From a virus (taxonomy: Duplodnaviria; Heunggongvirae; Uroviricota; Caudoviricetes), in the IMG/VR virus record IMGVR_UViG_2563366926_000003: a stretch of 21,813 nucleotides of DNA. One strand, given 5' to 3'. The position numbers and the translations under genes are program-made. This document shows positions 2,961-17,631 of this stretch, one piece after another; within the stretch, counting starts at the first letter, position 1, and each line of letters opens with the position of its first letter. The notes under the pieces are model-generated. The model saw nothing but the letters and a program-made list of their open reading frames with translations. It did not search any database and was not told the origin of the DNA.

Positions 2961-3134
2961 ATGCTGTTCATTGCTGCTATACACTTTTTTGCTCTCAACG
3001 TAAGCGGTAGCCCATTCTGTTGGGTTGGTGCAGTTGCTTTTAGGAAATGCTATTTACCCCTTAAATGTCGGCTGAAAGAGCTAAAATCCATGCAAAAAAT
3101 TTACGCAATTTTGTGTATTATTGTGCAGTAAGTA

Positions 3135-3737
3135 ATGAGCTATTTTCTGCGCAAAAAATGGATGGTAAATTTGTCCGGGTCAGGAAAAATTTTATGGGCG
3201 CTAAACATGAAAAAAGATTCGTATCCTTATTTGATTTGCATGACAGTTTCAGGGCTGATCTTTATTTTCCTTTTCTTCTGGTGGCGGGCAGATATCTACA
3301 GGGTCACGTTTCTTAATCAGAGTATATCCCACTATTACATTCTGTTTAGCATGGGAATAGCTTTTCTGTTATCTCTGTTTTGGGTTAAGAAGGGGATAGT
3401 AAAACAAAGAGGCTGGAAGAGTCTGTCAGCATACCTTAAGGTTTATGCAGGGATGTGCATATTTGCAGGATTTTTTCTGATTATACCCCTTACGACACTA
3501 ACTTATTTTTTGCCTGGAGAGACATCGTCTTATGTTGCACCGTATCGGTATACTTCCGGTAGTTCAAAAAGTTGTTCTGGAGCTGAGGTGGATGACCCCG
3601 ATCTACATGAGAATATTCGCATTTGCTATCCGTATGGCAATTATGAGTACGATAATATTATCTATGTTGAAAAGAAAATTAATATATTAGGTGCGGTAGT
3701 GACATATGCACAGACCGCGCGTGATGATACTGAATGA
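3135..3737 (+). CDS. Hypothetical integral membrane protein (about 3 predicted TM helices, Cys/Tyr-rich C-terminal tail); AT-rich cargo gene opposite to the pL operon
   Basis: 200-aa ORF with hydrophobic segments (LICMTVSGLIFIFLFFWW; ILFSMGIAFLLSLFWV; VYAGMCIFAGFFLIIPLTTLTYFL); AT-rich sequence with AT-rich codon choice; followed by a strong hairpin terminator. Start uncertain (alternative ATGs at 3161 and 3206; no strong SD for any). Confidence 0.55.
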   Translation: MSYFLRKKWMVNLSGSGKILWALNMKKDSYPYLICMTVSGLIFIFLFFWWRADIYRVTFLNQSISHYYILFSMGIAFLLSLFWVKKGIVKQRGWKSLSAYLKVYAGMCIFAGFFLIIPLTTLTYFLPGETSSYVAPYRYTSGSSKSCSGAEVDDPDLHENIRICYPYGNYEYDNIIYVEKKINILGAVVTYAQTARDDTE

Positions 3738-3771
3738 TATAGTATATAGCGGGCAAGTTTTAGTTAATTTA

Positions 3772-3809
3772 TCGAGGTAATATAATTTACCTCGACTCGT
3801 TTGTTCTGG
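3772..3809 (+). terminator. Intrinsic terminator of the membrane-protein cargo gene
   Basis: Perfect 9-bp inverted repeat tcgaggtaa / ttacctcga (3772-3780 and 3787-3795) with 6-nt loop tataat, followed by the T-rich stretch ctcgtttgttctgg. Confidence 0.55.
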
Positions 3810-3947
3810 TATTAATATTTCGCTTTACGACCGATTTTTATCTGATGATATCATGCGGTTTTCATATACTGACTTACTGTCTTTTCTCCGTTAGCGATTT
3901 TCTCCTGCTCAGCGATGATTTTATCTTTGGCTTCTAGTTAATTTCGC

Positions 3948-4169
3948 TCACTTCGAACCTCTCTGTTTACTGATAAGCTCCAGATCCTCCTGGCAACTTG
4001 CACAAGTCCGACAACCCTGAACGACCAGGCGTCTTCGTTCATCTATCGGATCGCCACACTCACAACAATGAGTGGCAGATATAGCCTGGTGGTTCAGGCG
4101 GCGCATTTTTATTGCTGTGTTGCGCTGTAATTCTTCAATTTCTGATGCTGAATCAATGATGTCTGCCAT
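3948..4169 (-). CDS. TraR/DksA-family C4 zinc-finger protein (lambdoid early-region small protein)
   Basis: 73-aa ORF with a CxxC...CxxC motif (CCECGDPIDERRRLVVQGCRTCASC), typical of the TraR/DksA family that binds the RNA polymerase secondary channel. Confidence 0.8.
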   Translation of the reverse strand: MADIIDSASEIEELQRNTAIKMRRLNHQAISATHCCECGDPIDERRRLVVQGCRTCASCQEDLELISKQRGSK

Positions 4170-4220
4170 CTTCCATTAATCCCTGAATTGTTGGTTAATA
4201 CGCTTGAGGGTGAATGCGAA

Positions 4221-4246
4221 TAATAAAAAAGGAGCCTGTAGCTCCC
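4221..4246 (-). terminator. Putative intrinsic terminator inside the pL operon
   Basis: On the minus strand: hairpin ggagc-tacag-gctcc followed by ttttttatt (plus-strand aaaaaaggagcctgtagctcc at 4225-4245). Confidence 0.4.
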
Positions 4247-4267
4247 TGATGATTTTGCTTTTCATGT

Positions 4268-4579
4268 TCATCGTTCCTTAAAGACGCCGTTTAACATGCC
4301 GATTGCCAGGCTTAAATGAGTCGGTGTGAATCCCATCAGCGTTACCGTTTCGCGGTGCTTCTTCAGTACGCTACGGCAAATGTCATCGACGTTTTTATCC
4401 GGAAACTGCTGTCTGGCTTTTTTGATTTCAGAATTAGCCTGACGGGCAATGCTGCGAAGGGCGTTTTCCTGCTGAGGTGTCATTGAACAAGTCCCATGTC
4501 GGCAAGCATAAGCACACAGAATATGAAGCCCGCTGCCAGAAAAATGCATTCCGTGGTTGTCATACCTGGTCTCTCTCAT
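4268..4579 (-). CDS. Hypothetical early-region protein (lambda orf61/orf63/orf60a neighbourhood)
   Basis: 103-aa ORF in the same orientation and position as the small lambda genes between xis and exo. The true start may be the internal ATG at 4483 (71 aa, MTPQQENALRS...); neither start has a strong RBS. Confidence 0.5.
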   Translation of the reverse strand: MRETRYDNHGMHFSGSGLHILCAYACRHGTCSMTPQQENALRSIARQANSEIKKARQQFPDKNVDDICRSVLKKHRETVTLMGFTPTHLSLAIGMLNGVFKER

Positions 4580-4751
4580 CTGCTTCTGCTTTCGCCACCA
4601 TCATTTCCAGCTTTTGTGAAAGGGATGCGGCTAACGTATGAAATTCTTCGTCTGTTTCTACTGGTATTGGCACAAACCTGACTCCAATTTGAGCGAGGCT
4701 ATGTGCCATCTCGATACTCGTTCTTAACTCAACGGGAGATGCTTTGTGCAT
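4560..4751 (-). CDS. Hypothetical small early-region protein
   Basis: 63-aa ORF overlapping its neighbours in the compact way typical of the lambda exo-proximal small genes. Confidence 0.5.
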   Translation of the reverse strand: MHKASPVELRTSIEMAHSLAQIGVRFVPIPVETDEEFHTLAASLSQKLEMMVAKAEADERDQV

Positions 4752-4912
4752 ACAGCTCCCCGTTTATTATTTATCTCCTCAGCCAGCCGCTGTGCTTTCA
4801 GGGGATTTCGGATAACAGAAAGGCCGGGAAATACCCAGCCTCGCTTCGTAACGGAGTAGACGAAAGTGATCGTGCCTACGCGGATATTATCGTGAGGATG
4901 TTTCATCGCCAT
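4724..4912 (-). CDS. Hypothetical small early-region protein immediately upstream of exo
   Basis: 62-aa ORF whose 5' region overlaps the 3' end of exo by 10 nt (operon-style packing). Confidence 0.5.
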
Positions 4913-5583
4913 TGCTCCCCAAATACAAAACCAATTTCAGCCAGTGCCTCGTCCATTTTTTCGATGAACTCCGGCACCATCTCGTCAAAACTCGCTATAT
5001 ACTTTTCATTCCGCTCAATCACGACATAATGCAGGCCTTCACGCTTCATGCGCGGGTCATAGTTGGCAAAGTACCAGGCATCTTTTCGCGTCACCCACAT
5101 GCTGTACTGCACCTGGGCCATGTAAGCCGACTTTATGGCCTCGAAACCACCGAGCCGGAATTTCATGAAATCCCGGGAGGTAAACGGGCATTTCAGCTCA
5201 AGGCCATTGCCGTCACTGCATAAACCATCGGGAGAGCAGGCGGTGCGCATACTTTCGTCGCGATAGATGATCGGGGATTCAATAACATTTACGCCGGAAG
5301 TGAACTCAAACAGAGTTCTGGCGTCGTTCTCGTACTGTTTTCCCCATGCCAGCGCCTTAGCATTAACTTCCGGAGCCACACCGGTGCAAACCTCAGCCAG
5401 CAGGGTGTGGAAGTAGGACATTTTCATGTCAGGCCACTTCTTTCCTGAGCGGGGCTTGGCTATCACGTTGTGAACTTCTGAAGCGGTGATGACGCCGAGC
5501 CGTAATTTGTGCCATGCATCATCCCCCTGTTCGACAGCTCTCACGTCGATCCCGGTACGCTGCAGGATAATGTCCGGTGTCAT
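4903..5583 (-). CDS. exo: Lambda exonuclease (Red-alpha)
   Basis: 226-aa ORF ([43 protein letters not shown]...) recognised as lambda Exo; start overlaps the bet stop (ATGA). Confidence 0.97.
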
Positions 5584-6365
5584 GCTGCCACCTTCTGCTC
5601 AGTGGCTTTCTGTTTCAGGAATCCAAGAGCTTTCACTGCTTCGGCCTGTGTCAGTTCTGACGATGCGCGAATGTCGCGGCGAAATATCTGGGAACAGAGC
5701 GGCAATAAGTCGTCATTCCATGTTTTATCCAGGGCGATCAGCAGAGTGTTAATCTCCTGCATGGTTTCATCGTTAACCGGAGTGATGTCGCGTTCCGGCT
5801 GACGTTCTGCAGTGTATGCGGTATTTTCGACAATGCGCTCGGCTTCATCCTTGTCATAGATACCAGCAAATCCGAAGGCGAGACGGGCACACTGAATCAT
5901 GGCTTTATGCCGTAACATCCGTTTGGGATGCGACTGCCACGGCCCCGTGATTTCTCTGCCTTCGCGGGTTTTGAATGGTTCGCGGCGGCATTCATCCATC
6001 CATTCGGTAACGCAGATCGGATGATTGCGGTCTTTGCGGTAAATCCGGCATGTGCAGGATTCGTTGTCCTGTTCAAAGTCCATGCCGTCAAACTGCTGGT
6101 TTTCGTTGATGATGCGGGACCAGCCATCAACGCCCACCACCGGAACGATGCCGTTCTGCTTATCAGGGAAGGCGTAAATTTCTTTCGTCCACGGATTAAG
6201 ACCGTACTGGTTGGCGACGATCAGCAATGCGATGAACTGCGCATCGCTGGCATCACCTTTAAATGCCGTCTGGCGAAGAGTGGTGATCAGTTCCTGTGGG
6301 TCGACAGAATCCATGCCGACACGTTCAGCCAGCTTCCCAGCCAGCGTTGCGAGTGCTGTACTCAT
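5580..6365 (-). CDS. bet: Lambda Beta single-strand annealing protein (Red-beta)
   Basis: 261-aa ORF ([66 protein letters not shown]...) recognised as lambda Bet. Confidence 0.97.
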
Positions 6366-6370
6366 CCGTT

Positions 6371-6787
6371 TTATACCTCTGAATCAATATCAACCTGATG
6401 GTGAGCAATGGTTTCAACCATGTACCGGATGTGTTCTGCCATGCGCTCCTGAAACTCAACATCGTTATCAAACGCACGGGTAATGGCTTTTTTGCTGGCC
6501 CCGTGGCGTTGCAAATGATCGATGCATAGCGATTCAAACAGGTGCTGGGGCAGGCCTTTTTCCATGTCGTCTGCCAGTTCTGCCTCTTTCTCTTCACGGG
6601 CGATCTGCTGGTAGTGACGCGCCCAGCTCTGAGCCTCAAGACGATCCTGAATGTAATAAGCGTTCATGGCTGAACTCCTGAAATAGCTGTGAAAATATCG
6701 CCCGCGAAATGCCGGGCTGATTAGGAAAACAGGAAAGGGGGTTAGTGAATGCTTTTGCTTGATCTCAGTTTCAGTATTAATATCCAT
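6371..6787 (-). CDS. gam: Lambda Gam (RecBCD inhibitor)
   Basis: 138-aa ORF ([61 protein letters not shown]...) recognised as lambda Gam. Confidence 0.95.
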
Positions 6788-6885
6788 TTTTTATAAGCGT
6801 CGACGGCTTCACGAAACATCTTTTCATCGCCAATAAAAGTGGCGATAGTGAATTTAGTCTGGATAGCCATAAGTGTTTGATCCAT
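6742..6885 (-). CDS. kil: Lambda Kil (FtsZ-inhibiting host-killing protein)
   Basis: 47-aa reading frame [47 protein letters not shown], inside the 89-aa track ORF; recognised as lambda Kil; overlaps gam and cIII as in lambda. Confidence 0.8.
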
Positions 6886-7018
6886 TCTTTGGGACTCCTG
6901 GCTGATTAAGTATGTCGATAAGGCGTTTCCATCCGTCACGTAATTTACGGGTAATTCGTTCAAGTAAAGATTCGGAAGGGCAGCCAGCAACAGGCCACCC
7001 TGCAATGGCATATTGCAT
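6854..7018 (-). CDS. cIII: Lambda CIII (FtsH inhibitor that stabilises CII)
   Basis: 54-aa frame [54 protein letters not shown], an internal start within the 78-aa track ORF; recognised as lambda CIII. Confidence 0.85.
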   Translation of the reverse strand: MQYAIAGWPVAGCPSESLLERITRKLRDGWKRLIDILNQPGVPKNGSNTYGYPD

Positions 7019-7090
7019 GGTGTGCTCCTTATTTATACATAACGAAAAACGCCTCGAGTGAAGCGTTATTGGTATACGGTAAAGCCGCAC

Positions 7091-7384
7091 TCAGGCGGCC
7101 TTGATAGTCATATCATCTGAATCAAATATTCCTGATGTATCGATATCGGTAATTCTTATTCCTTCGCTACCATCCATTGGAGGCCATCCTTCCTGACCAT
7201 TTCCATCATTCCAGTCGAACTCATACACAACACCATATGCATTTAAGTCGCTTGAAATTGCTATAAGCAGAGCATGTTGCGCCAGCATGATTAATACAGC
7301 ATTTAATACAGAGCCGTGTTTATTGAGTCGGTATTCAGAGTCTGACCAGAAATTATTAATCTGGTGAAGTTTTTCCTCTGTCAT
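7091..7384 (-). CDS. Hypothetical early protein in the lambda ea10 position
   Basis: 97-aa ORF between cIII and ral on the pL strand; assigned by position only. Confidence 0.45.
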   Translation of the reverse strand: MTEEKLHQINNFWSDSEYRLNKHGSVLNAVLIMLAQHALLIAISSDLNAYGVVYEFDWNDGNGQEGWPPMDGSEGIRITDIDTSGIFDSDDMTIKAA

Positions 7385-7477
7385 TACGTCATGGTCGATT
7401 TCAATTTCTATTGATGCTTTCCAGTCGTAATCAATGATGTATTTTTTGATGTTTGATATCTATTCATATCCTCACAG

Positions 7478-7505
7478 ATAAAAAATCGCCCTCACATTGG
7501 AGGGC
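7478..7505 (-). terminator. Putative intrinsic terminator (tL-type) between ral and the ea10-position gene
   Basis: Hairpin gccctc-acattg-gagggc (7488-7505); on the minus strand it is followed by a U-run (plus-strand agataaaaaatc at 7477-7487). Confidence 0.5.
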
Positions 7506-7641
7506 AAAGAAGATTTCCAATAATCAGAACAAGTCGGCTCCTGTTTAGTTACGAGCGACATTGCTCCGTGTATTCACTCGTTGGAATGAATACACAGTGC
7601 AGTGTTTATTCTGTTATTTATGCCAAAAATAAAGGCCACTA

Positions 7642-7842
7642 TCAGGCAGCTTTGTTGTTCTGTTTACCAAGTTCTCTGGCAATCATTGCCGTCGCTCGTA
7701 TTGCCCATTTATCGACATATTTCCCATCTTCCATTACAGGAAACATTTCTTCAGGCTTAACCATGCATTCCGATTGCAGCTTGCATCCATTGCATCGCTT
7801 GAATTGTCCACACCATTGATTTTTATCAATAGTCGTAGTCAT
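7642..7842 (-). CDS. ral: Lambda Ral (restriction alleviation)
   Basis: 66-aa ORF (MTTTIDKNQWCGQFKRCNGCKLQSECMVKPEEMFPVMEDGKYVDKWAIRATAMIARELGKQNNKAA) recognised as lambda Ral. Confidence 0.9.
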   Translation of the reverse strand: MTTTIDKNQWCGQFKRCNGCKLQSECMVKPEEMFPVMEDGKYVDKWAIRATAMIARELGKQNNKAA

Positions 7843-7912
7843 AAGGATAGTCCTGGTATTGTTCCATCACATCCTGGGGATGCTCTTCGAACTCTTCAAA
7901 TTCTTCTTCCAT
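7826..7912 (-). CDS. Small acidic ORF (lambda orf28-like), translationally coupled to ral
   Basis: Minus-strand ATG at 7912 encodes MEEEFEEFEEHPQDVMEQYQDYPYDYDY (28 aa); its stop overlaps the ral start. Below the ORF-track size cut-off. Confidence 0.5.
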   Translation of the reverse strand: MEEEFEEFEEHPQDVMEQYQDYPYDYDY

Positions 7913-8055
7913 ATATCACCTTAAATAGTGGATTGCGGTAGTAAAGATTGTGCCTGTCTTTTAACCACATCAGGCTCGGTGGTTCTCGTGTACCCCTACA
8001 GCGAGAAATCGGATAAACTCTATTCACCCCTACAGAGAGCAAAAGAGAAACGCCG

Positions 8056-8637
8056 ATGAACAACTCATGGTGGCAGGAACTAATGCATTTTTTCCTGCAA
8101 GGAATGACACTTAAACAGTTGATTCATATGCTAATCATCCTGATCATATTGATTATTGTTATGCCGGTAAGCGTAAAAGAATGGATAAACCTGCATAATC
8201 CAGAAATCCTTCCTCATTACTGGATGTATTACATCCTGTTGTTTTGCGTTAGCTATGTGCTTAACGGCGTTGTTAATTCCGCTTATCACGCTGTGACTGA
8301 AAGAATTGAGGTATTCGTTGCTCAGAAGCGCAAATCTAAAGAAGAAAAATATGTGCAAGATTTGTTTGATTCGTTAACTCTTGGAGAAAGAGCGTATTTG
8401 GCATTCGCTGTAGCCGCTAATAACCAGCTACAAACGGAAAAGGGAGCTCATGAATCAATTTCATTGCTCAAAAAAGGACTCCTCGTTCGAAGGCCTCCTG
8501 CTGTTGGATATCCTGATACCGACCGTTTTGTTATTCCTGAAAGCTATAGACATGAGTGCTACATTCGGTTTGCCGGGAAGGCAGACAGCCTTATGGATGA
8601 ACTTATCGCTCAGGATAAGCATGGCAAAAACAAGTAA
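8056..8637 (+). CDS. sieB: Superinfection exclusion protein B
   Basis: 193-aa ORF with N-terminal hydrophobic segments (LIHMLIILIILIIVMPV; YWMYYILLFCVSYVLNGVV); sits between ral and N, convergent with the pL operon, as sieB does in lambda and P22. Confidence 0.8.
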   Translation: MNNSWWQELMHFFLQGMTLKQLIHMLIILIILIIVMPVSVKEWINLHNPEILPHYWMYYILLFCVSYVLNGVVNSAYHAVTERIEVFVAQKRKSKEEKYVQDLFDSLTLGERAYLAFAVAANNQLQTEKGAHESISLLKKGLLVRRPPAVGYPDTDRFVIPESYRHECYIRFAGKADSLMDELIAQDKHGKNK

Positions 8638-8653
8638 TTAGCAAATGAATTTA

Positions 8654-8962
8654 TCATCTCGCCGTCAGTTGTTTTGATTTCCGGTAGCCTGCCGCGTAAA
8701 TAGCTACGTTTGGCAGGCAAACACTTCCACTGCATTCATCTACTTTCTTGCAGCGAAGGCTTCCGAGTGATATTGCTTTTTCAGAAAGGCTTAACCGCTT
8801 TCTCGGGTCTTCCTGAACAGGTTCCTCACTGTCTGTGCCGAAGATCGAATCGATGATGTTGCAGATGGAATCACGCTCGATGGCCAGCTTTCTGCGCCGC
8901 TCATGACGGCGAGTTTTGGCATTTCCTGCAAATGTTGATTTTCCGTACACGATTACCGTCAT
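8654..8962 (-). CDS. N-type transcription antiterminator, P22 gene 24-like (not lambda N)
   Basis: Internal start MTVIVYGKSTFAGNAKTRRHERRRKLAIERD... (102 aa) inside the 130-aa track ORF; arginine-rich N-terminal motif; recalled as similar to P22 gp24; lies downstream of a P22-type nutL. Confidence 0.8.
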   Translation of the reverse strand: MTVIVYGKSTFAGNAKTRRHERRRKLAIERDSICNIIDSIFGTDSEEPVQEDPRKRLSLSEKAISLGSLRCKKVDECSGSVCLPNVAIYAAGYRKSKQLTAR

Positions 8963-9080
8963 GATGTTTTCCTCATGTGAAATGGCTTTGGTGGTGATGC
9001 GCCAGATGCTGATCTTCTGGTTGCTGTCGTTACTGCTGCAATTCACATCACCCCAAACCCATCTCGTTTGGTATCTGTTC

Positions 9081-9114
9081 GCGCTTTGTCAGCGCATCAT
9101 CGAAGTTAAAGAGC
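9081..9114 (-). promoter_or_regulatory. nutL (boxA + boxB), P22 specificity
   Basis: Minus-strand reading gctctttaa (boxA-like, consensus CGCTCTTTA) ... gcgctgacaaagcgc (boxB hairpin; 5-bp stem, 5-nt loop); matches the P22 nutL boxB as recalled; about 120 nt upstream of N. Confidence 0.7.
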
Positions 9115-9371
9115 CTGCCAATCTGTTCCGTTTGGCTGCCAGCGTCCTGCTGATGGCGATGATAATGAACCAATAGTTCGATATTATCAAGAACTATAAG
9201 TACGAATTGTTTGTGGCTCATTAACTTAATGAGATATGTTTTTGATATGTAAAGGAATTTATTTTTGTAAAGATTGAAGATTGGTCAGTAGGAGAGAAAG
9301 AATTGTTTGCTGGCGTGTTAGTTCGTGGGTTAGCACATGTGCGGATGTTAAATAAGGTAGACGATCGTGAG

Positions 9372-9398
9372 GAAAAGAAAAACCGGCGCTGAGGCCGG
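9372..9398 (-). terminator. Terminator ending the leftward cI-ORF299 transcript
   Basis: GC hairpin ccggc-gctgag-gccgg (9383-9398) followed on the minus strand by a T-run (plus-strand gaaaagaaaaa); sits just after the ORF299 stop. Confidence 0.5.
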
Positions 9399-9404
9399 GT
9401 ATAA

Positions 9405-10304
9405 TTATTTGATTATTTCTTTTATAAAGACTTCTTTCGGTTGGTATTTTTTATCTGATGATTTGAGCTGGTACGTTATTGTTATATCAGCACGTACAGC
9501 AAATTTACCTGCAAAATCTGATGGGTTTACGTTGGGGCCAAGAACCATATTTACTCTTCGATCTATTAATCCAGGGATAACAGCAGCCCAACCTTTCTCT
9601 GGATTGTCGAGGTCTAATGCACGGATTTCAACATCAACATCAAAATGATCCTGAGTATATGACTCTGGTGTGAAGACAACTTCAGTTGGGGCTTTTTTAA
9701 TGGTTTCAGCGGGAATGGTCACTGTACCACCCCCTGTACCTATGACCATCGTAGATCCTTCGTCTGCCCTAGCTGGGGCAAGCGTCTTAATGGAACTTTT
9801 GGCAAGAGTCTTCTTATTGGTTACCGTGCTTTCTATGATTGCTTGAAGACGGTCAGGTGAAATATTAGCCTCACCGGCACCAATATTGATGATTGTATTG
9901 TTATTTGCTTCAAAGTGGGAGGTGTTGCTTGGAGCCATAGCCTTAGTTGCTAGAACTAAGCCATATCCAACCAGACCAATAACAACAGCACCAACGAGAG
10001 CGTTTCTCATTTTCCCATTTCCGATCTTTGCATGAGCGCCAGCAAGAAACTTGTCCATTTCTTCTTGGCTACCAAAGAGGAGTTTAATAACAATATCTTC
10101 ATAAAGGCTTCCTGCTTCTAATCGCGCAACATGCACCGATATATCAAGGATATTAGCCCCTGTCAGTTCCTGCAAAACACCTTCTGATTGTTTTGCGATG
10201 GCCTCCCACCCTTGAAGGGAGGTAATCACATCTTTGATGCTTACAGGTTCTTTAGTTGAATAATATATGTTTTCGGTAAAGGTTAAAGATAATTCTTGGG
10301 ACAT
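9405..10304 (-). CDS. Hypothetical membrane-anchored protein (one central TM helix) in the rexAB position of the immunity region; candidate superinfection-exclusion / abortive-infection gene
   Basis: 299-aa ORF with a good RBS (gaggg, 6 nt upstream of the ATG), co-oriented with and 130 bp downstream of cI; central hydrophobic helix ALVGAVVIGLVGYGLVLATKAMA; visibly more AT-rich than the lambda backbone; no family recognised. Confidence 0.7.
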   Translation of the reverse strand: MSQELSLTFTENIYYSTKEPVSIKDVITSLQGWEAIAKQSEGVLQELTGANILDISVHVARLEAGSLYEDIVIKLLFGSQEEMDKFLAGAHAKIGNGKMRNALVGAVVIGLVGYGLVLATKAMAPSNTSHFEANNNTIINIGAGEANISPDRLQAIIESTVTNKKTLAKSSIKTLAPARADEGSTMVIGTGGGTVTIPAETIKKAPTEVVFTPESYTQDHFDVDVEIRALDLDNPEKGWAAVIPGLIDRRVNMVLGPNVNPSDFAGKFAVRADITITYQLKSSDKKYQPKEVFIKEIIK

Positions 10305-10433
10305 CCGAGCCCTCGCTGTTTCTTTCGATTTGCTGTGTTAAGCTAATATTTTAATATCCATGTTTCTGTTTGCTTGCAGTGTGTTTCTCACCACCATCCA
10401 AACGTACTGGTTACTAGCTATGTGATGATGAAG

Positions 10434-11141
10434 TCATGAACTTTTCAGCCATTCCCTGGCCTCGATGTCATCTAGGTGGCGAGATTGCTTCAGAATACCA
10501 GCTACATACTCCACCTTTGCTACTTGATGATAAGGCAACGTTATTGGCCTGTGGTCTTGGTTGATGCTTGTAAATTGGTATTCTCCGTCTCTGTCATAGC
10601 CAAGAACCTTGATCATGTTGTGCCCTTCAATGGTTCTGACAAACACCTCATCACCTGGGAATACTTTGGTGTTAGGCTCAATGAGTACATATTCTCCTGA
10701 TTTTATTCTGGGCCACATGCTGTCTCCTTTTACACGAAGACCAAAGGCATCTGGATCATCGCTATAAATCTTGAGCCACCCATCGCGCTCTTCGGTCATC
10801 TCGATGGCACCATCAACACCAAGAATTGCCTCACCAACCACGCGCACTAACCCTTTTTTTAATTTGCCAACAATTGAAAAAGTATCTTCATCATTCGCTC
10901 CATTTAACGAAGTGCCGTGCTGAAGCCAAACAACATCAACGTTTAGAAATTTCGCAAGCGCATTCATTTTTTCCTGGCGTGGTAAAGACTCAGCATTAAA
11001 CCATTTGCTAACGCCTTTGGACGAAAGAGAAAGGGCACGGGCTATGGCCATTCCCCTACCATGTTCATCAAGACCAGCTTCTTTACAGGCTTGCGCTAGC
11101 CGCTGGGCGAATTCTTTGCGCACTTTTTCATTCTGAACCAT
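10434..11141 (-). CDS. cI: CI-type prophage repressor (N-terminal HTH, C-terminal S24 LexA-like autopeptidase); non-lambda immunity
   Basis: 235-aa ORF; C-terminal domain carries the S24 catalytic motif (GDSMWPRI ... MIKVL) for RecA-stimulated autocleavage; divergent from cro across an operator region; no SD upstream, so possibly leaderless like lambda cI from pRM. Confidence 0.88.
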   Translation of the reverse strand: MVQNEKVRKEFAQRLAQACKEAGLDEHGRGMAIARALSLSSKGVSKWFNAESLPRQEKMNALAKFLNVDVVWLQHGTSLNGANDEDTFSIVGKLKKGLVRVVGEAILGVDGAIEMTEERDGWLKIYSDDPDAFGLRVKGDSMWPRIKSGEYVLIEPNTKVFPGDEVFVRTIEGHNMIKVLGYDRDGEYQFTSINQDHRPITLPYHQVAKVEYVAGILKQSRHLDDIEAREWLKSS

Positions 11142-11219
11142 GAGTACGATACTAAAGCACTTGCAAAAACTTTCAGTTCAACCATAATGCGTACTGAAAG
11201 TACGAAAAAGGACATTCCT
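11142..11219. promoter_or_regulatory. OR / pR-pRM divergent control region
   Basis: Candidate pR: TTGCAA (11161-11166), 16-bp spacer, CATAAT (11183-11188); a 15-bp near-palindrome cgtactgaaagtacg (11190-11204) overlaps the predicted +1 as a candidate operator; cro RBS aaggac follows. Confidence 0.55.
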
Positions 11220-11447
11220 ATGCAAAATCTTGATGAGCCGATTAAAGGTGTCGGCATCCCTGAAGTTGCGAAGGCTTGTGGAGTTAGCGAAAGGGCTGTC
11301 TATAAGTGGCTCAAAAACGGCTTCCTCCCTAAGACTGAGTTTTTTGGGAAAACGAAATACGCATCAAAAATCGAAGAGATTTCTGGTGGCAAATATCAAG
11401 CAAGCGAAATGCTTGAAATAAGCAAAAAGAACCTTCTGGCAGCATAA
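11220..11447 (+). CDS. cro: Cro-type repressor (HTH)
   Basis: 75-aa frame MQNLDEPIKGVGIPEVAKACGVSERAVYKWLKNG... with an HTH motif; internal ATG preceded by RBS aaaaagga; divergent from cI. Confidence 0.8.
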   Translation: MQNLDEPIKGVGIPEVAKACGVSERAVYKWLKNGFLPKTEFFGKTKYASKIEEISGGKYQASEMLEISKKNLLAA

Positions 11448-11454
11448 GTAACAC

Positions 11455-11489
11455 CGCTCTTTATCAATCTGCACCGCCGACAACGCGGT
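11455..11489 (+). promoter_or_regulatory. nutR (boxA + boxB), P22 specificity
   Basis: boxA cgctcttta (11455-11463) followed by boxB hairpin accgccgacaacgcggt (11473-11489); matches the P22 nutR boxB as recalled; located between cro and cII. Confidence 0.7.
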
Positions 11490-11553
11490 AACTAATTAAG
11501 AACTCATCGAAAGATGCGTATTAGTGATTATTTACCTATGGAAATAGTAAGAA

Positions 11554-11853
11554 ATGGAACAAACAAATTACAGCAAACTATCACAGCGCGACGTTGATCG
11601 CGCAGAAACAGATTTACTTATCAACCTGTCAACGCTTACTCAGCGCGGTCTGGCAAAGATGATTGGCTGTCATGAATCGAAGATAAGCAGAACAGACTGG
11701 AGGTTTATAGCTTCGGTCTTGTGTGCTTTTGGCATGGCATCAGACATCAGTCCGATTAGCAGAGCTTTTAAGTATGCGCTTGATGAAATCACCAATAAAA
11801 AACGCCCGGTGTGCAAGACCGAGCGTTCTGAACAAATCCAGATGGAGTTCTGA
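11554..11853 (+). CDS. cII: CII transcriptional activator (lambda-like)
   Basis: 99-aa ORF; C-terminus ...TNKKRP..TERSEQIQMEF matches the lambda CII C-terminus; follows cro and nutR. Confidence 0.88.
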   Translation: MEQTNYSKLSQRDVDRAETDLLINLSTLTQRGLAKMIGCHESKISRTDWRFIASVLCAFGMASDISPISRAFKYALDEITNKKRPVCKTERSEQIQMEF

Positions 11854-11875
11854 GGTCATTACTGGATCTATCAAC
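11797..11875 (-). ncRNA. oop: oop-like antisense RNA (antisense to the cII 3' end)
   Basis: The minus-strand sequence gttgatagatccagtaatgacctcagaactccatctggatttgttcagaacgctcgg... matches the lambda oop RNA as recalled and ends in a hairpin plus ttttttatt. The terminator stem differs from lambda's; the same change alters the CII C-terminus. Confidence 0.5.
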
Positions 11876-11885
11876 AGGAGTCATT

Positions 11886-12785
11886 ATGACAAATACAGCA
11901 AAAATACTCAACTTCGGCAGAGGTAACTTTGCCGGACAGGAGCGTAATGTGGCAGATCTCGATGATGGTTACGCCAGACTATCAAATATGCTGCTTGAGG
12001 CTTATTCGGGCGCAGATCTGACCAAGCGACAGTTTAAAGTGCTGCTTGCCATTCTGCGTAAAACCTATGGGTGGAATAAACCAATGGACAGAATCACCGA
12101 TTCTCAACTTAGCGAGATTACAAAGTTACCTGTCAAACGGTGCAATGAAGCCAAGTTAGAACTCGTCAGAATGAATATTATCAAGCAGCAAGGCGGCATG
12201 TTTGGACCAAACAAAAACATCTCAGAATGGTGCATCCCTCAAAACGAGGGAAAATCCCCTAAAACGAGGGATAAAACATCCCTCAAATTGGGGGATTGCT
12301 ATCCCTCAAAACAGGGGGACACAAAAGACACTATTACAAAAGAAAAAAGAAAAGATTATTCGTCAGAGAATTCTGGCGAATCCTCTGACCAGCCAGAAAA
12401 CGACCTTTCTGTGGTGAAACCGGATGCTGCAATTCAGAGCGGCAGCAAGTGGGGGACAGCAGAAGACCTGACCGCCGCAGAGTGGATGTTTGACATGGTG
12501 AAGACCATCGCGCCATCAGCCAGAAAACCGAATTTTGCAGGGTGGGCTAACGATATCCGCCTGATGCGTGAACGTGACGGACGTAACCACCGCGACATGT
12601 GCGTGCTGTTCCGCTGGGCATGCCAGGACAACTTCTGGTCCGGTAACGTGCTGAGCCCGGCCAAACTCCGCGATAAGTGGACCCAACTCGAAATCAACCG
12701 TAACAAGCAACAGGCAGGCGTGACAGCCAGCAAACCAAAACTCGACCTGACAAACACAGACTGGATTTACGGGGTGGATCTATGA
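11886..12785 (+). CDS. O: Lambda replication initiator O
   Basis: 299-aa ORF (MTNTAKILNFGRGNFAGQERNVADLDDGYARLSNMLLEAYSGADLTKRQFKVLLAILRK...) recognised as lambda O; contains the ori iterons internally. Confidence 0.97.
   Translation: MTNTAKILNFGRGNFAGQERNVADLDDGYARLSNMLLEAYSGADLTKRQFKVLLAILRKTYGWNKPMDRITDSQLSEITKLPVKRCNEAKLELVRMNIIKQQGGMFGPNKNISEWCIPQNEGKSPKTRDKTSLKLGDCYPSKQGDTKDTITKEKRKDYSSENSGESSDQPENDLSVVKPDAAIQSGSKWGTAEDLTAAEWMFDMVKTIAPSARKPNFAGWANDIRLMRERDGRNHRDMCVLFRWACQDNFWSGNVLSPAKLRDKWTQLEINRNKQQAGVTASKPKLDLTNTDWIYGVDL
12234..12362. repeat. ori-lambda: four iterons followed by an AT-rich unwinding region
   Basis: Four directly repeated, internally palindromic units (atccctcaaaacgaggga; aaatcccctaaaacgaggga; ...atccctcaaattggggga; ...atccctcaaaacaggggga) followed by an A-rich tract (caaaagacactattacaaaagaaaaaagaaaag), inside O. 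Confidence 0.85.
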
Positions 12786-13483
12786 AAAACATCGCCGCAC
12801 AGATGGTTAACTTTGACCGTGAGCAGATGCGTCGGATCGCCAACAACATGCCGGAACAGTACGACGAAAAGCCGCAGGTACAGCAGGTAGCGCAGATCAT
12901 CAACGGTGTGTTCAGCCAGTTACTGGCAACTTTCCCGGCGAGCCTGGCTAACCGTGACCAGAACGAAGTGAACGAAATCCGTCGCCAGTGGGTTCTGGCT
13001 TTTCGGGAAAACGGGATCACCACGATGGAACAGGTTAACGCAGGAATGCGCGTAGCCCGTCGGCAGAATCGACCATTTCTGCCATCACCCGGGCAGTTTG
13101 TTGCATGGTGCCGGGAAGAAGCATCCGTTACCGCCGGACTGCCAAACGTCAGCGAGCTGGTTGATATGGTTTACGAGTATTGCCGGAAGCGAGGCCTGTA
13201 TCCGGATGCGGAGTCTTATCCGTGGAAATCAAACGCGCATTACTGGTTGGTTACCAACTTGTACCAGAACATGCGGGCCAATGCGCTGACTGACGCGGAA
13301 TTACGGCGCAAGGCTGCCGATGAACTGACCTGTATGACAGCGCGAATTAACCGTGGTGAGACGATACCTGAACCAGTAAAACAACTTCCTGTTATGGGCG
13401 GTAGACCTCTAAATCGTGCACAGGCTCTGGCGAAGATCGCAGAAATTAAAGCTAAGTTTGGACTGAAAGGATCGATGAAATAG
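12782..13483 (+). CDS. P: Lambda replication protein P (DnaB helicase loader)
   Basis: 233-aa ORF recognised as lambda P; start overlaps the O stop (ATGA-type coupling); the extreme C-terminus may differ from lambda where the cargo island begins. Confidence 0.93.
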   Translation: MKNIAAQMVNFDREQMRRIANNMPEQYDEKPQVQQVAQIINGVFSQLLATFPASLANRDQNEVNEIRRQWVLAFRENGITTMEQVNAGMRVARRQNRPFLPSPGQFVAWCREEASVTAGLPNVSELVDMVYEYCRKRGLYPDAESYPWKSNAHYWLVTNLYQNMRANALTDAELRRKAADELTCMTARINRGETIPEPVKQLPVMGGRPLNRAQALAKIAEIKAKFGLKGSMK

Positions 13484-13722: not shown

Positions 13723-16700
13723 ATGACCACTGTGAATAAAAAGTTAAAAAAAACTGCATCTGGCGCGATTACATGGTCAGTAATTGTTACCCAGATATTA
13801 TCTCCAGTTTCTCTTTCTTTGATTCCGGCAAACAGTTTTGCATCGTCTGATAATAAAGATGTTACGCAAATTTATGCTAGCGATGAGCGTGCAAATAAAG
13901 TGGCCTCATTTGCAGTAAGTGCAGGTCAGAGTCTGGCGAATAATAATGCAAGTAGTTTTGCTGTAAATACTTTATCAACTCAGGCGACAAAAGAGGTCGT
14001 CGATTGGTTGCAACAATATGGCAATGCGCGCATCAAGCTTAATGTCGATAATTCTTTTTCCTTGAAGGATTCATCATTCGACTTTTTATATCCATGGCTG
14101 GATACTCAGGATTATGTGCTATTCAGTCAAACATCACTACATCGTACTGATGACCGTAATCAGACCAATATTGGTTTGGGGATTCGTCATTTCACTCCTG
14201 ATAATGCAATGTTGGGTGCGAATGTTTTCTACGATTATGATTTAAGTCGCAGCCACTCTCGCGCAGGTTTTGGGGTTGAGTACTGGAGAGATTATTTCAG
14301 GCTTGGTGTAAATACCTATTTTGGTTTATCTGACTGGAAGGACAGTCGGGATATTGATGATTATCTGGAAAGACCCGCAAATGGCTGGGATTTTTCTGCT
14401 GAAGGATGGCTACCTGCTTATCCGCAATTAGGGGCATCTATTCAGTTTGAAAAATATTATGGTAAAAATGTCGGATTATTTGGAAGCGATAATCTGCAGG
14501 AAAACCCTTACGCAGTTACTGGGGGAATTTCTTATACACCAGTTCCTCTGATTAAGTTTTCTGCACAGCATAAGCAAGGACAGAGCAACGTTCACGATAC
14601 AACCTTTGGTGTTGAGTTTAATTACCGCCCAGGCGTTTCCCTTGCTGAACAGCTTAGCAGTGACAATGTTGCAGTTATGCGAGAAGTCCAGAACCGGCGT
14701 TATGATTTTGTTGAACGAAATAACAACATTGTTCTGGAGTACAAGAAGAAGCATGCACTGAAAATCAGCTTACCAGAGTCTGTTCAGGGGGATGGCGAAT
14801 CAATCATCCCTGTAACACTGACAATCAACAATGCCAGTGGTGGTATCAAGTCTGTACAGTGGAATGATAGTGTATTCACTGCGGCTGGCGGTAAGATCAG
14901 TGGAAATGGCACATCATGGCAGGTCACTTTACCGGCTTATAAAAGCGAAGGTGTAAATTCGTGGAATGTTGGAGCCACGGTCCAGGATAATAGAGGCAAC
15001 GTTTCCAACTATGCGGTGATGAATATTAGCGTTATCAATAGTGGTGTCTCGACAGCGGATTCTTCTTTTATGTTGGATGGAGATTCATCTCCGACGATCT
15101 CTGCTGATGGTCAATCCACTCATCCAATAGTATTAAGCCTGAAAGACAGTAACGGTAAGGCATTAACCGGACTGGCTGATGACATTGAAATGTCAGTGGA
15201 ATTTACTGCGGATAGCAATAGTGCTCGACAGCGTGAAACGGTAACTGCCCCGTCATTAGGCGCGGTAGAGGAAATCTCTGCTGGTGTATATCGCTCTGTT
15301 CTGACTGCTGGTTCGCAGGCTGGCACAGTACGTGTAACAGCAAAAGTTCAGGGAAAAACCTTTACTTTGAATATTAAGCAGGCAGCCGTTATTGATAGTG
15401 ATGTCTCGACAGCGGATTCTTCTTTTACGTTGGATGGTGATTCGTCTCCGACGATCTCTGCTGATGGTCAATCCACTCATCCAATAGTATTAAGCCTGAA
15501 AGACAGTAACGGTAAGGCATTAACCGGACTGGCTGATGACATTGAAATGTCAGTGGAATTTACTGCGGATAGCAATAGTGCTCGACAGCGTGAAACGGTA
15601 ACTGCCCCGTCATTAGGCGCGGTAGAGGAAATCTCTGCTGGTGTATATCGCTCTGTTCTGACTGCTGGTTCGCAGGCTGGTACGGTACGTGTAACTGCAA
15701 AAGTAATGGATAAAACATTTACTCTCAGTATTAAGCAAACAGCAGCAACAGAACCTGATTCTGAGGTCAGTGCTGTTTTAACCGCTGCACCAGCAGAACA
15801 GGTAGTTGGTTACAATATCAATCTACAACTGGCAGTGAAGGATTCACAAGGAAATGCAATCACTGGTGATAACACTCTGAGCTTTTATGCTCTTAACCAG
15901 GCAGAAGGAGTCGAGTTTGGGGCTGTAACGGAAAAAGACGGTGTCTATAGCGCGACAGTAACTTCAAAACGAGCTGGTAAGATTCGGATCGGTGTTAAAT
16001 CGGGTAGTCACAATTTCTCAGGTATTGAGAAAGAAATCTCCTTTATTGAAGATCGAACACAGTTCGCATTCTCTCGTATTGAAGCCAGTAAAAATAATGC
16101 ATTGGCTGACGGCAAACAACAGAATACGGTGACTTTAAGCCTTGCAGATCGTTTCGGCAATGTTGTGCCCGGTTATGCTGTTACGCTGTCCTTACCTGCG
16201 GGGGTAACTCAAGTTGGTGGTGAACATGCTGTGTCAACTGACGAAAACGGTAATGCTGTTTTTGCGTTAATAAGCTCCACTCCGGGTTCTTACGTGATTA
16301 AAGCTCATGCTGGTTCTCAGATGTCTACTGAGTTAACAGTAACCTTTGCATCAAATATGATCGGAGCTTCACTGTCACTGACGCCTGGAAACAGTAGCTT
16401 AATTTCCAATATTCCTGCTAATGGTAAGGATGCTGCGGTATTGAATGTGCAACTGACAAATACGAATGCGTCGGTCAATGGACAGAAGATTCAGCTCATC
16501 ACCTCATCTGAAAGATTGTCTGTACCGACAAATATCGTGACTGATTCAACAGGGCATGTTTCCGTACCACTTACAACGGTGAGAGCTGGTGAGTATACGG
16601 TGGCTGCACGAGTGACTGACGGTTCCCATAGTGTGGAGTCTGGCAGCGTTAAGTTAACTTTTGTACCAGATGCTGCTTCCGCAGAACTTACTATGAGTAC

Positions 16701-17631
16701 ATCAAAACAGCAGATTGTGGCCGATGGTAGTGAAAGTGCAACAGTGGACATTCAGTTGGTTGATGCCAATAACAATGCGTTTACAGGCGATGTGGATTTA
16801 ACGGTTACACCATCGACGGGAGCATCATTGACCAGTAGTAAACTGCAGTTGGATGCTCATGGACAGGCAACAACGCAGTTCACAGCATCGAAATCAGGCC
16901 AGTACACAATTCAGGCTGAGTATGTTCTAGATGGGAAACGTATAACCGCAAGCAAAAATATTGATGCCGTGACGGATGTGAAGGAGGCTGTGTTGGAGAT
17001 CACATCATCTGCATCTTCGGCTGTAGTGAGCGATACCAACAATCTGATATTTACGTTACTGTTGAAAAGTACGTCAGGCGAAGTATTAAGTGGTCGAGTA
17101 TTGAATATCAAGGCATCTGGGCCGTCCAAATATGGTGCGTTGGTGGTTGATAAAACCACTGTAACGACTGATGAGTATGGTCTGGCTACGGTAAGCGTAC
17201 ATGGTCGAACGGCTGGTTCGTATAAATTAACGGCGACCTTAGATGAACTTGGCAGTGATGTTAGTGAGGTGAAGTCATTCTCTCTGTATGCTGATGAGGC
17301 AAATGGAGTATTGACACTGCATAAAGATGGAGGCTATGACACAGATGATGGTACTCCAGTGGGGGTTTATGCCCGATTTGTTGACCATTTCGGCAATCCG
17401 TTATCTGGTACGGTTGAGTTTTCTGCTGGTAGTGAAGATAGTCCAAACTCTCAACGGGTTAAAATGGAGCCTGCTACAGTAACGTTACACTGGACAGGTA
17501 ATGCAGCCTCGGAGTTCAGCACCTATGAAAGCGGTTATCACTGGATTAAGGCCAAAATAACGAACAGCAAAAATACATATGAGAAAACAATAAGGACTTA
17601 TGTTGTAAAGCTCCCTGAAAAGGATAGTTAA
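13723..17631 (+). CDS. Inverse autotransporter adhesin of the intimin/invasin family (signal peptide, outer-membrane beta-barrel, tandem bacterial Ig-like domains)
   Basis: 1302-aa ORF; N-terminal signal-like segment; residues ~100-340 resemble the intimin/invasin beta-barrel translocator (GIRHFTPDN...GFGVEYWRDYFRLGVNTYFG...FGVEFNYRPGV); the C-terminal ~950 aa is a series of repeated ~100-120-aa Ig-like modules including two near-identical copies; preceded by ~240 bp of very AT-rich DNA and followed by a strong terminator. Confidence 0.85.
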   Translation: MTTVNKKLKKTASGAITWSVIVTQILSPVSLSLIPANSFASSDNKDVTQIYASDERANKVASFAVSAGQSLANNNASSFAVNTLSTQATKEVVDWLQQYGNARIKLNVDNSFSLKDSSFDFLYPWLDTQDYVLFSQTSLHRTDDRNQTNIGLGIRHFTPDNAMLGANVFYDYDLSRSHSRAGFGVEYWRDYFRLGVNTYFGLSDWKDSRDIDDYLERPANGWDFSAEGWLPAYPQLGASIQFEKYYGKNVGLFGSDNLQENPYAVTGGISYTPVPLIKFSAQHKQGQSNVHDTTFGVEFNYRPGVSLAEQLSSDNVAVMREVQNRRYDFVERNNNIVLEYKKKHALKISLPESVQGDGESIIPVTLTINNASGGIKSVQWNDSVFTAAGGKISGNGTSWQVTLPAYKSEGVNSWNVGATVQDNRGNVSNYAVMNISVINSGVSTADSSFMLDGDSSPTISADGQSTHPIVLSLKDSNGKALTGLADDIEMSVEFTADSNSARQRETVTAPSLGAVEEISAGVYRSVLTAGSQAGTVRVTAKVQGKTFTLNIKQAAVIDSDVSTADSSFTLDGDSSPTISADGQSTHPIVLSLKDSNGKALTGLADDIEMSVEFTADSNSARQRETVTAPSLGAVEEISAGVYRSVLTAGSQAGTVRVTAKVMDKTFTLSIKQTAATEPDSEVSAVLTAAPAEQVVGYNINLQLAVKDSQGNAITGDNTLSFYALNQAEGVEFGAVTEKDGVYSATVTSKRAGKIRIGVKSGSHNFSGIEKEISFIEDRTQFAFSRIEASKNNALADGKQQNTVTLSLADRFGNVVPGYAVTLSLPAGVTQVGGEHAVSTDENGNAVFALISSTPGSYVIKAHAGSQMSTELTVTFASNMIGASLSLTPGNSSLISNIPANGKDAAVLNVQLTNTNASVNGQKIQLITSSERLSVPTNIVTDSTGHVSVPLTTVRAGEYTVAARVTDGSHSVESGSVKLTFVPDAASAELTMSTSKQQIVADGSESATVDIQLVDANNNAFTGDVDLTVTPSTGASLTSSKLQLDAHGQATTQFTASKSGQYTIQAEYVLDGKRITASKNIDAVTDVKEAVLEITSSASSAVVSDTNNLIFTLLLKSTSGEVLSGRVLNIKASGPSKYGALVVDKTTVTTDEYGLATVSVHGRTAGSYKLTATLDELGSDVSEVKSFSLYADEANGVLTLHKDGGYDTDDGTPVGVYARFVDHFGNPLSGTVEFSAGSEDSPNSQRVKMEPATVTLHWTGNAASEFSTYESGYHWIKAKITNSKNTYEKTIRTYVVKLPEKDS
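15030..15743 (+). repeat. Near-identical 357-bp (119-codon) in-frame tandem duplication inside the adhesin gene
   Basis: The unit starting gtctcgacagcggattcttctttt occurs at 15046 and again at 15403 (period 357 bp); the central ~280 bp differ at only a handful of positions; encodes VSTADSSF.LDGDSSPTISADGQSTHPIVLSLKDSNGKALTGLADDIEMSVEFTADSNSARQRETVTAPSLGAVEEISAGVYRSVLTAGSQAGTVRVTAKV twice. Confidence 0.92.

Follow-up and report, generated by a model that had tools for sequence, protein, structure and literature searches.

How does a P22-type antitermination system come to enclose a cI/cro immunity set unlike those of lambda and P22, inside an otherwise lambda-like early region? The question is posed by the Caudoviricetes record IMGVR_UViG_2563366926_000003, from which we analyzed a window of 21,813 nucleotides (21.8 kb) and, within it, a regulatory segment of 2836 bp (8654-11489). 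The window was compared by BLAST with lambda, P22, and 933W; its gene order, from the open reading frame (ORF) listing and family scans, is that of a canonical lambdoid early region. We conclude, with a probability of about 0.9, that the segment represents the early regulatory core of a lambdoid mosaic prophage of natural origin, located at lambda attB beside ybhC and formed by recombination. As such the core is already known: it is textbook lambdoid mosaicism, with each element characterized and the exact combination already deposited.

The antiterminator N is of the P22 gene 24 type, as the initial annotation had proposed, and lies beside a P22-type sieB gene on the opposite strand:
8654-8962, minus strand: N, P22 gene 24 type, 102 aa (Pfam PF25694, N_peptide, E=4.9e-41)
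8056-8637, plus strand: sieB (superinfection exclusion B), P22-type (Pfam PF14163, E=2.5e-22)

N is identical to P22 gp24 at 72/100 positions, compared with 41% identity to 933W N and 27% to lambda N. The likeness is greatest at the N terminus, where 40 of the first 42 residues are identical to gp24; the central region is divergent. Residues 13 to 30 (G13-R30), GNAKTRRHERRRKLAIER, are exactly the P22 arginine-rich motif, published as the RNA-binding motif of P22 N (PMC3153931). We place the N start at the ATG at 8962, which is preceded by a GAGGA Shine-Dalgarno sequence and agrees with both the P22 gp24 start and the NCBI-annotated coding sequence; a 130-aa GTG-started ORF reaching 9046 is a mechanical extension of N and was rejected as the true start. 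A PDB sequence search with N and with a 30-aa peptide containing the motif gave no match, but the search has a 20-residue limit, and the P22 N-peptide entry is presumably shorter than that. SieB is 82% identical in amino acid sequence to P22 SieB and 21% identical to lambda SieB. Because lambda similarity ends at 8035, ~20 bp upstream of the sieB start (8056) and level with the aligned lambda sieB start, sieB is part of the P22-type block with N.

Both nut sites stand at their canonical positions and are of the P22 type as well:
9081-9095, minus strand: nutL boxB, gcgctgacaaagcgc / GCGCUGACAAAGCGC, 5-bp stem with GACAA pentaloop, identical to annotated P22 nutL
9105-9114, minus strand: nutL boxA, GCTCTTTAAC / GCUCUUUAAC, identical to P22 nutL boxA, with the same 9-nt spacer to boxB
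11455-11465, plus strand: nutR boxA, CGCTCTTTATC / CGCUCUUUAUC, one base off P22 nutR boxA; also the cro/nutR junction
11473-11489, plus strand: nutR boxB, accgccgacaacgcggt / ACCGCCGACAACGCGGU / ACCGCCGACAACGCGGT, a 17-mer identical to annotated P22 nutR boxB

The whole nutL array of boxA, spacer, and boxB (GCTCTTTAAC-TTCGATGAT-GCGCTGACAAAGCGC, 9114-9081 on the minus strand) is identical to P22 nutL, and its boxB is predicted to fold into a 5-bp stem with a 5-nt loop (-8.6 kcal/mol, z=-3.4). A 5-bp stem is likewise predicted for nutR boxB, as the P22 sequence would give; this boxB differs from that of 933W nutR (TCGCTGACAAAGCGA), and the nutR spacer differs from that of P22. Exact 15- and 17-nt matches to the P22 boxB sequences at both canonical positions cannot be chance. 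The P22-type boxB assignments made in the initial annotation thus hold for both sites, and alignment revealed neither a non-P22 N or nut site nor a mismatch between N and nut. An Rfam scan of 8000-12500 at E<=1 returned a chance snoRNA match only and no nut or oop family. Two ORFs overlap nutL. One, at 8961-9176 on the plus strand, runs opposite to the N start, nutL, and the pL leader; RefSeq and phage records list it as a 71-aa hypothetical protein (phrog_6589), probably an artefact of annotation that persists because the nutL/leader DNA is conserved. The other, 57 aa at 9048-9221 on the minus strand, we reject as a gene: its ATG precedes the predicted pL start, and its only match, in PHROG, is marginal.

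The repressor, Cro, and the operators were initially described as different from those of both lambda and P22, and they are: cI and Cro are 25-33% identical to the lambda and P22 proteins, a likeness at the level of the fold only. The set is recognizable as the known, experimentally dissected 933W immunity (PMC3317979), and not as an unknown type:
10434-11141, minus strand: cI repressor, 933W type (helix-turn-helix plus S24 autocleavage domain; Pfam HTH_3 and Peptidase_S24)
11220-11447, plus strand: cro, 933W type, 75 aa, 75/75 identical to 933W Cro (100%)
11134-11148: OR3, TGAACCATGAGTACG, identical to annotated 933W oR3; overlaps the cI start codon
11166-11180: OR2, AAAACTTTCAGTTCA, identical to annotated 933W oR2
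11190-11204: OR1, CGTACTGAAAGTACG, identical to annotated 933W oR1
9166-9180: left operator (OL) nearer pL, TGAACCAATAGTTCG, exact half-site pattern match, identical in 933W OL
9190-9204: OL operator farther from pL, AGAACTATAAGTACG, exact pattern match; two central positions differ from 933W
9162-9190, minus strand: candidate pL promoter, TTGATA, 17-nt spacer, CATTAT (consensus scan); overlaps both OL operators
11161-11188, plus strand: candidate pR promoter, TTGCAA, 16-nt spacer, CATAAT (consensus scan); overlaps OR2/OR1, at the place of annotated 933W pR
9383-9398, minus strand: intrinsic terminator, CCGGCCTCAGCGCCGG then a T-run; aligns with annotated 933W tM
11554-11853, plus strand: cII, codons 1-78 933W-type, last ~20 codons (~79-99) lambda-type

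cI is identical to 933W cI at 232/235 positions (98.7%). The candidate 15-bp palindrome noted previously, cgtactgaaagtacg at 11190-11204, is 933W OR1, and a search of the whole window for the 933W half-site pattern GWACY-N3-RGTWC recovered the other operators: all four perfect matches fall in OL (9167-9179 and 9191-9203) or OR (OR3 and OR1), and OR2 has one mismatch. The resulting layout, three OR and two OL sites of 15 bp with rotational symmetry, matches the unusual 3+2 layout of 933W, whose five natural 15-bp sites are bound non-cooperatively, OR1 most strongly (PMC3317979). Because the terminator lies at 9398-9383 on the minus strand, the predicted pRM transcript would cover cI and a 299-aa gene to its left (orf299, described below). 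Most of cII is also 933W-type: identity is 88% to the 933W protein and 41% to the lambda one, with the lambda BLAST match starting only at 11789. The proposal that the early genes are lambda-like therefore stands for int, xis, exo, bet, gam, kil, cIII, ral, O, and P (98-99%) and fails for cII.

The BLAST matches divide the window as follows:
1331-2962, 3936-8035, and 11789-13471: lambda, 98-99% (int-xis; orf61 to ral; end of cII, O, and P)
7662-9157: P22, 80% (ral, sieB, gene 24, and nutL)
11439-11566: P22, 72% (nutR region)
9142-9399: 933W, 73% (OL/pL and terminator)
10406-13471: 933W, 93% (cI onward)
8654-8724: 933W, 93% (3' end of N)

Six junctions separate these pieces:
Junction a, 8035/8036: ~20 bp upstream of the sieB start codon
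Junction b, 9142-9157, minus strand: pL transcript start (catcagcaggacgc...), where P22-like sequence switches to 933W-like
Junction c, 10406: 28 bp downstream of the cI stop
Junction d, ~11455: cro stop/boxA; the alignment follows 933W through ...accgct, then P22
Junction e, ~11500-11545: between nutR and the cII start
Junction f, 11789: inside cII, codon ~79

At junction b, the P22 match ends 3 nt from the annotated 5' end of the P22 early-left RNA (P22 30888 versus 30885); to one side of the junction lie the promoter and operators specific to the immunity, to the other the leader specific to N. The stretch that coincides with this junction, the pL leader as far as boxA (9100-9157), is conserved in P22, 933W, this prophage, and phage DE3, which we take to be a lambda imm21 derivative and which has 42 bp of the leader in common; this leader is likely a recombination linker. 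Most boundaries thus coincide with those of functional modules, as had been suggested: the sieB start, the pL start, the cro stop/boxA, and the point after cI. Two junctions depart from this rule in being intragenic, one in cII (~79) and one in N (~73), although both plausibly lie at domain borders. The N junction, seen against Shiga toxin 2a (Stx2a)-converting phages at about codon 73 (window 8745), parts the boxB- and NusA-binding portion from the C-terminal tail, and the last ~24 N codons (8654-8724) have 93% nucleotide identity to the 3' end of 933W N. The same pattern distinguishes phage L from P22, whose gp24 proteins have a common N-terminal 75 aa and common boxBs and are interchangeable although their C termini are unrelated (PMC8022706). 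Two unrelated tails occur on N proteins with the P22-type motif, a P22/933W-like one (YAAGYRKSKQLTAR) and a lambda-like one (GVTCVGRQKMKLGSKPLI, ...GVTCVGRQK...) seen in Stx2_EH1965 (about 3880-4218) and in loci of the survey described next, which indicates domain-level recombination inside N.

The initial annotation further held that N and its RNA targets had been exchanged together as one specificity module. They are matched in type, but they are not contiguous: the P22-like unit sieB-N-nutL spans 8036-9157, and nutR stands apart, in a patch of ~45-90 bp that has 933W-type cro on one side and 933W-type cII on the other. Since N-nutL and nutR flank the immunity cassette, no single contiguous move could have brought them in unless the cassette was inserted between them. 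For N to have been exchanged with its targets, there must have been two separate exchanges, or else P22-type nut sites were already in place when an imm933W cassette was inserted between them.

If N and nutR are kept together by function, the pairing should be visible wherever the same immunity is found. We surveyed 80 IMG/VR loci whose cI matches that of the window at 98% identity or more and typed N, nutL, and nutR in each. Three N types occur alongside the one 933W-type cI:
P22-type N, motif GNAKTRRHERRRKLAIER: nutR boxB CCGCCGACAACGCGG in 30/30 loci
933W-type N, motif GNSRSRRRERLKAKALANG: nutR boxB TCGCTGACAAAGCGA in 33/33 loci
Third N type, motif GTAASRRRARRANLQ: nutR boxB TCGCTGAAAAGCGA in 7/7 loci

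N type predicted the nutR boxB in all 70 typed loci, with zero mismatches. The surrounding sequence is far less constant. The C-terminal alleles of cII have been reassorted among all three N types, N tails are shuffled too, and the distance from the N start to the cI stop takes 13, 14, and 6 distinct values within the P22-type, 933W-type, and third N types, respectively, which marks the OL-cI slot as a hotspot for exchange of accessory genes. Recombination nearby is thus frequent yet the pairing is strict, which argues that it is kept by function and not by linkage alone. The third N type is itself distinctive: a 90-aa protein in seven loci (among them L056), with GAAAA boxB loops in nutL (GGCTGAAAAGCC) and nutR (TCGCTGAAAAGCGA), the latter differing from the 933W nutR boxB by essentially one loop base.

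The notion of a co-exchanged specificity module calls for a caveat. The nutL boxB of 933W is the same 15-mer as that of P22, and the 933W nutR loop is also GACAA (933W sequence L004, 9614-9680 and 13096-13141); GCGCTGACAAAGCGC is the nutL boxB in 34/34 loci with 933W-type N and in 27/30 with P22-type N, the three exceptions being one point variant and two loci in which an extra ORF moves nutL outside the searched interval. Since it also accompanies a different N in 933W, this boxB is not exclusive to P22-type N; as far as the sequences go, nutR alone discriminates the 933W type from the P22 type. The arginine-rich motifs are alike as well (GNSRSRRRER in the 933W type, GNAKTRRHER in the P22 type), so the two N types may share boxB recognition. 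It is accordingly conceivable, though in our judgment rather unlikely, that both N types read essentially the same GACAA-loop boxB and that the strict pairing reflects linkage, or a requirement involving boxA, the spacer, or Nus factors, instead of boxB recognition; in 933W nutR, boxA is different and lies much farther from boxB than in P22-type nutR. Such an explanation must contend with nutR boxB stems that differ consistently between the two N types (63/63 loci), and do so although recombination has reassorted the cII alleles a few hundred bp rightward and the cargo to the left, and with the third N type, in which the loops of both nutL and nutR co-vary with N. The feature separating the 933W-type and P22-type systems may therefore lie in the nutR context (stem, boxA, or spacer) and not in the boxB loop. 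Several observations weigh against the mosaic as we describe it. The co-variation rests on three N types and related sequences, so phylogenetic non-independence inflates the 70/70 count; a nutL boxB common to two N types makes cross-reaction possible, and selection for matching would then be weaker than we suppose. For the nutR boxB, the predicted fold is only marginally better than that of shuffled sequence (z=-1.4), though its sequence is the same as that of P22, and the consensus promoter scans give as many matches as expected from shuffled sequence. In addition, the window diverges from the related phage 1H12 after P, at an inverse autotransporter insertion, and the whole prophage may not be inducible.

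This last point bears on whether the core belongs to a decaying cryptic-prophage remnant, whose regulatory parts would no longer be a working set and whose N-nut match would be historical. After P, the ren and nin genes are indeed replaced by a gene for a 1302-aa inverse autotransporter, unlike in related free phage. We nevertheless regard decay as very unlikely, because all ORFs in 8056-13483 are intact and full length, and because no damage is seen in the operators, nut sites, Shine-Dalgarno sequences, or terminator. The 2.8-kb core is also widespread: at ≥99% identity and ≥80% coverage it occurs in 150/5426 complete E. coli genomes (~3%), with 100% identity in every match listed, including an E. 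coli chromosome with the same gene order beside ybhC/ybhJ, the lambda attB site. Moreover, 11 complete phage genomes on deposit (46.7-kb genomes among them) carry it at 99.9% identity, namely 1H12 (genus Jouyvirus), the Lambda_2E9 group, ev087, and others; it thus belongs to sequenced, evidently viable phages. A still different proposal, that cI, cro, and the operators represent an immunity specificity not yet described, drew on the low identity to the lambda and P22 proteins, which was all that could be seen in the initial annotation. The near-complete identity of cI and Cro to those of 933W and the base-for-base identity of OR1-3 rule it out, as does OL, where one site is identical and the other is off at two central, weakly read positions (PMC3317979); virtually no probability remains for it.

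On the preferred reading, a working natural mosaic, the core would operate as follows. In the lysogen, 933W-type cI on its three OR and two OL operators would shut pR and pL, and cI together with orf299 would be transcribed from pRM to the intrinsic terminator. Upon induction, pL and pR would fire, placing the P22-type nutL in the pL leader and the P22-type nutR in the pR transcript after cro. The P22-type N would then bind the GACAA-loop boxB hairpins via its arginine-rich motif and, with host Nus factors at boxA, make RNA polymerase resistant to termination, so that the lambda-type recombination genes on the left and cII, O, and P on the right could be expressed. The mosaic itself probably arose through recombination at short stretches of conserved sequence that separate functional units (sieB start, pL transcript start, and cro stop/boxA); N and nutR would stay matched because mismatched recombinants should fail in rightward antitermination.

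Compared with known systems, the 1H12/Lambda_2E9 group has the same combination of P22-type N motif, nutL/nutR, and 933W immunity (99.9% over the segment), and 1H12 is without the insertion after P. A search of the literature on phage 1H12, Jouyvirus, and WP_000076839 found nothing relevant. The combination of N motif, nut sites, and imm933W also occurs in dozens of Stx2a-converting phages (e.g., Stx2_EH1965, LC616032), where identity is 93% over 8745-9271 (N-nutL-OL) and 97% over 10406-11849 (cI-cro-nutR-cII); these phages differ in their lambda-like N C-terminal tail, in the cargo between OL and cI, and in the virion and late region. No stx genes are present in the window. With P22 and its relatives (phage L, ES18, and other P22-like phages), the core has in common the N family PF25694, an identical arginine-rich motif, nutL, and nutR boxB, and a sieB on the opposite strand beside N; DNA identity over the sieB-N-nutL block is 80% to P22 and 86-88% to several P22-like Salmonella phages. 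It differs from P22 in N overall (72%), in lacking P22 c2/cro between the nut sites, and in the nutR spacer and one boxA base; here, moreover, E. coli is the host, and what the window covers of the rest of the prophage, its early genes and integration site, is lambda-like. With 933W it has in common cI, Cro, OR1-3, two OL operators, the position of the pRM-operon terminator, and the first 78 cII codons, whereas 933W has its own N type, another nutR, and stk plus three more genes between OL and cI in place of the single orf299.

The closest constructed parallels are the laboratory hybrids lambda imm933W, lambda immP22, and lambda imm21, in which a lambda backbone carries foreign immunity and/or N-nut exchanged at conserved flanks. 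Those hybrids, which are viable, were selected in the laboratory; the present mosaic is natural and joins three donors (lambda, P22-type, and 933W-type) in one core. Co-variation of N and nut among lambda, 21, and P22 was reportedly described by Franklin in 1985, in a paper that PMC9074901 cites. The value of the present case is modest and illustrative: 933W immunity is found naturally with three N types, each keeping its own nutR across the cassette, which lends population-level support to the classic idea that N and nut co-evolve as a functional pair. That such combinations can function is consistent with the viability of lambda imm933W and lambda immP22, both in routine use (PMC6989128). 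Lysogens of this prophage would be expected to be immune to Stx phages with 933W immunity, which bears on the spread of Stx phages and on the reading of imm933W-based tools.

The initial annotation passed over one gene of the regulatory core, between OL and cI:
9405-10304, minus strand: orf299, 299 aa, predicted membrane protein, in the slot of lambda rexAB or 933W stk

orf299 belongs to phrog_4506 (function unknown). It has no Pfam match above the curated threshold, no NCBIfam or PADLOC match, and did not match RexA/RexB or a described family of defence proteins; its 55 homologue clusters, mostly from Enterobacterales, are all annotated as hypothetical. Their alignment shows an N-terminal domain, one hydrophobic helix (~108-128, predicted transmembrane), then the motif FEANNNTIINIGAGE, which is invariant, and a beta-rich C-terminal domain in which R228, D233, and W239 do not vary. 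An AlphaFold2 model has a mean pLDDT (predicted local distance difference test) of 86 and no convincing match in the PDB. Homologues occupy the same slot between cI and N in Lonsdalea lambdoid prophages (L012 and L013), stand beside a P4-like primase in Serratia (L011), and lie among the head genes of a Mu-like prophage in Accumulibacter (L008); such scattered settings are typical of a mobile accessory gene. We tentatively suggest that orf299 could be an undescribed single-gene, lysogen-expressed phage-exclusion or abortive-infection protein, co-transcribed with cI.

Outside the core, the remaining features of the window are these:
1-1284: ybhC, bacterial flank of the prophage
Minus strand: int, xis, exo, bet, gam, kil, cIII, ea10, and ral (ORF listing and family scans)
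11886-12785: O, lambda-like
12782-13483: P, lambda-like
13723-17631, plus strand: inverse autotransporter (intimin/invasin-like), 1302 aa (NCBIfam IatC and intimin matches below curated cut-offs)

ybhC borders the prophage at lambda attB, and the attP core is the exact start of lambda similarity. Between the two left-hand lambda matches, a non-lambda patch at 2963-3935 stands in place of ea8.5/ea22; it contains a plus-strand ORF of 200 aa (3135-3737) with no NCBIfam match. The inverse autotransporter gene directly follows the replication gene P, where ren and ninB are found in lambda and phage 1H12, and so places a large adhesin gene within the early-right operon of the prophage.

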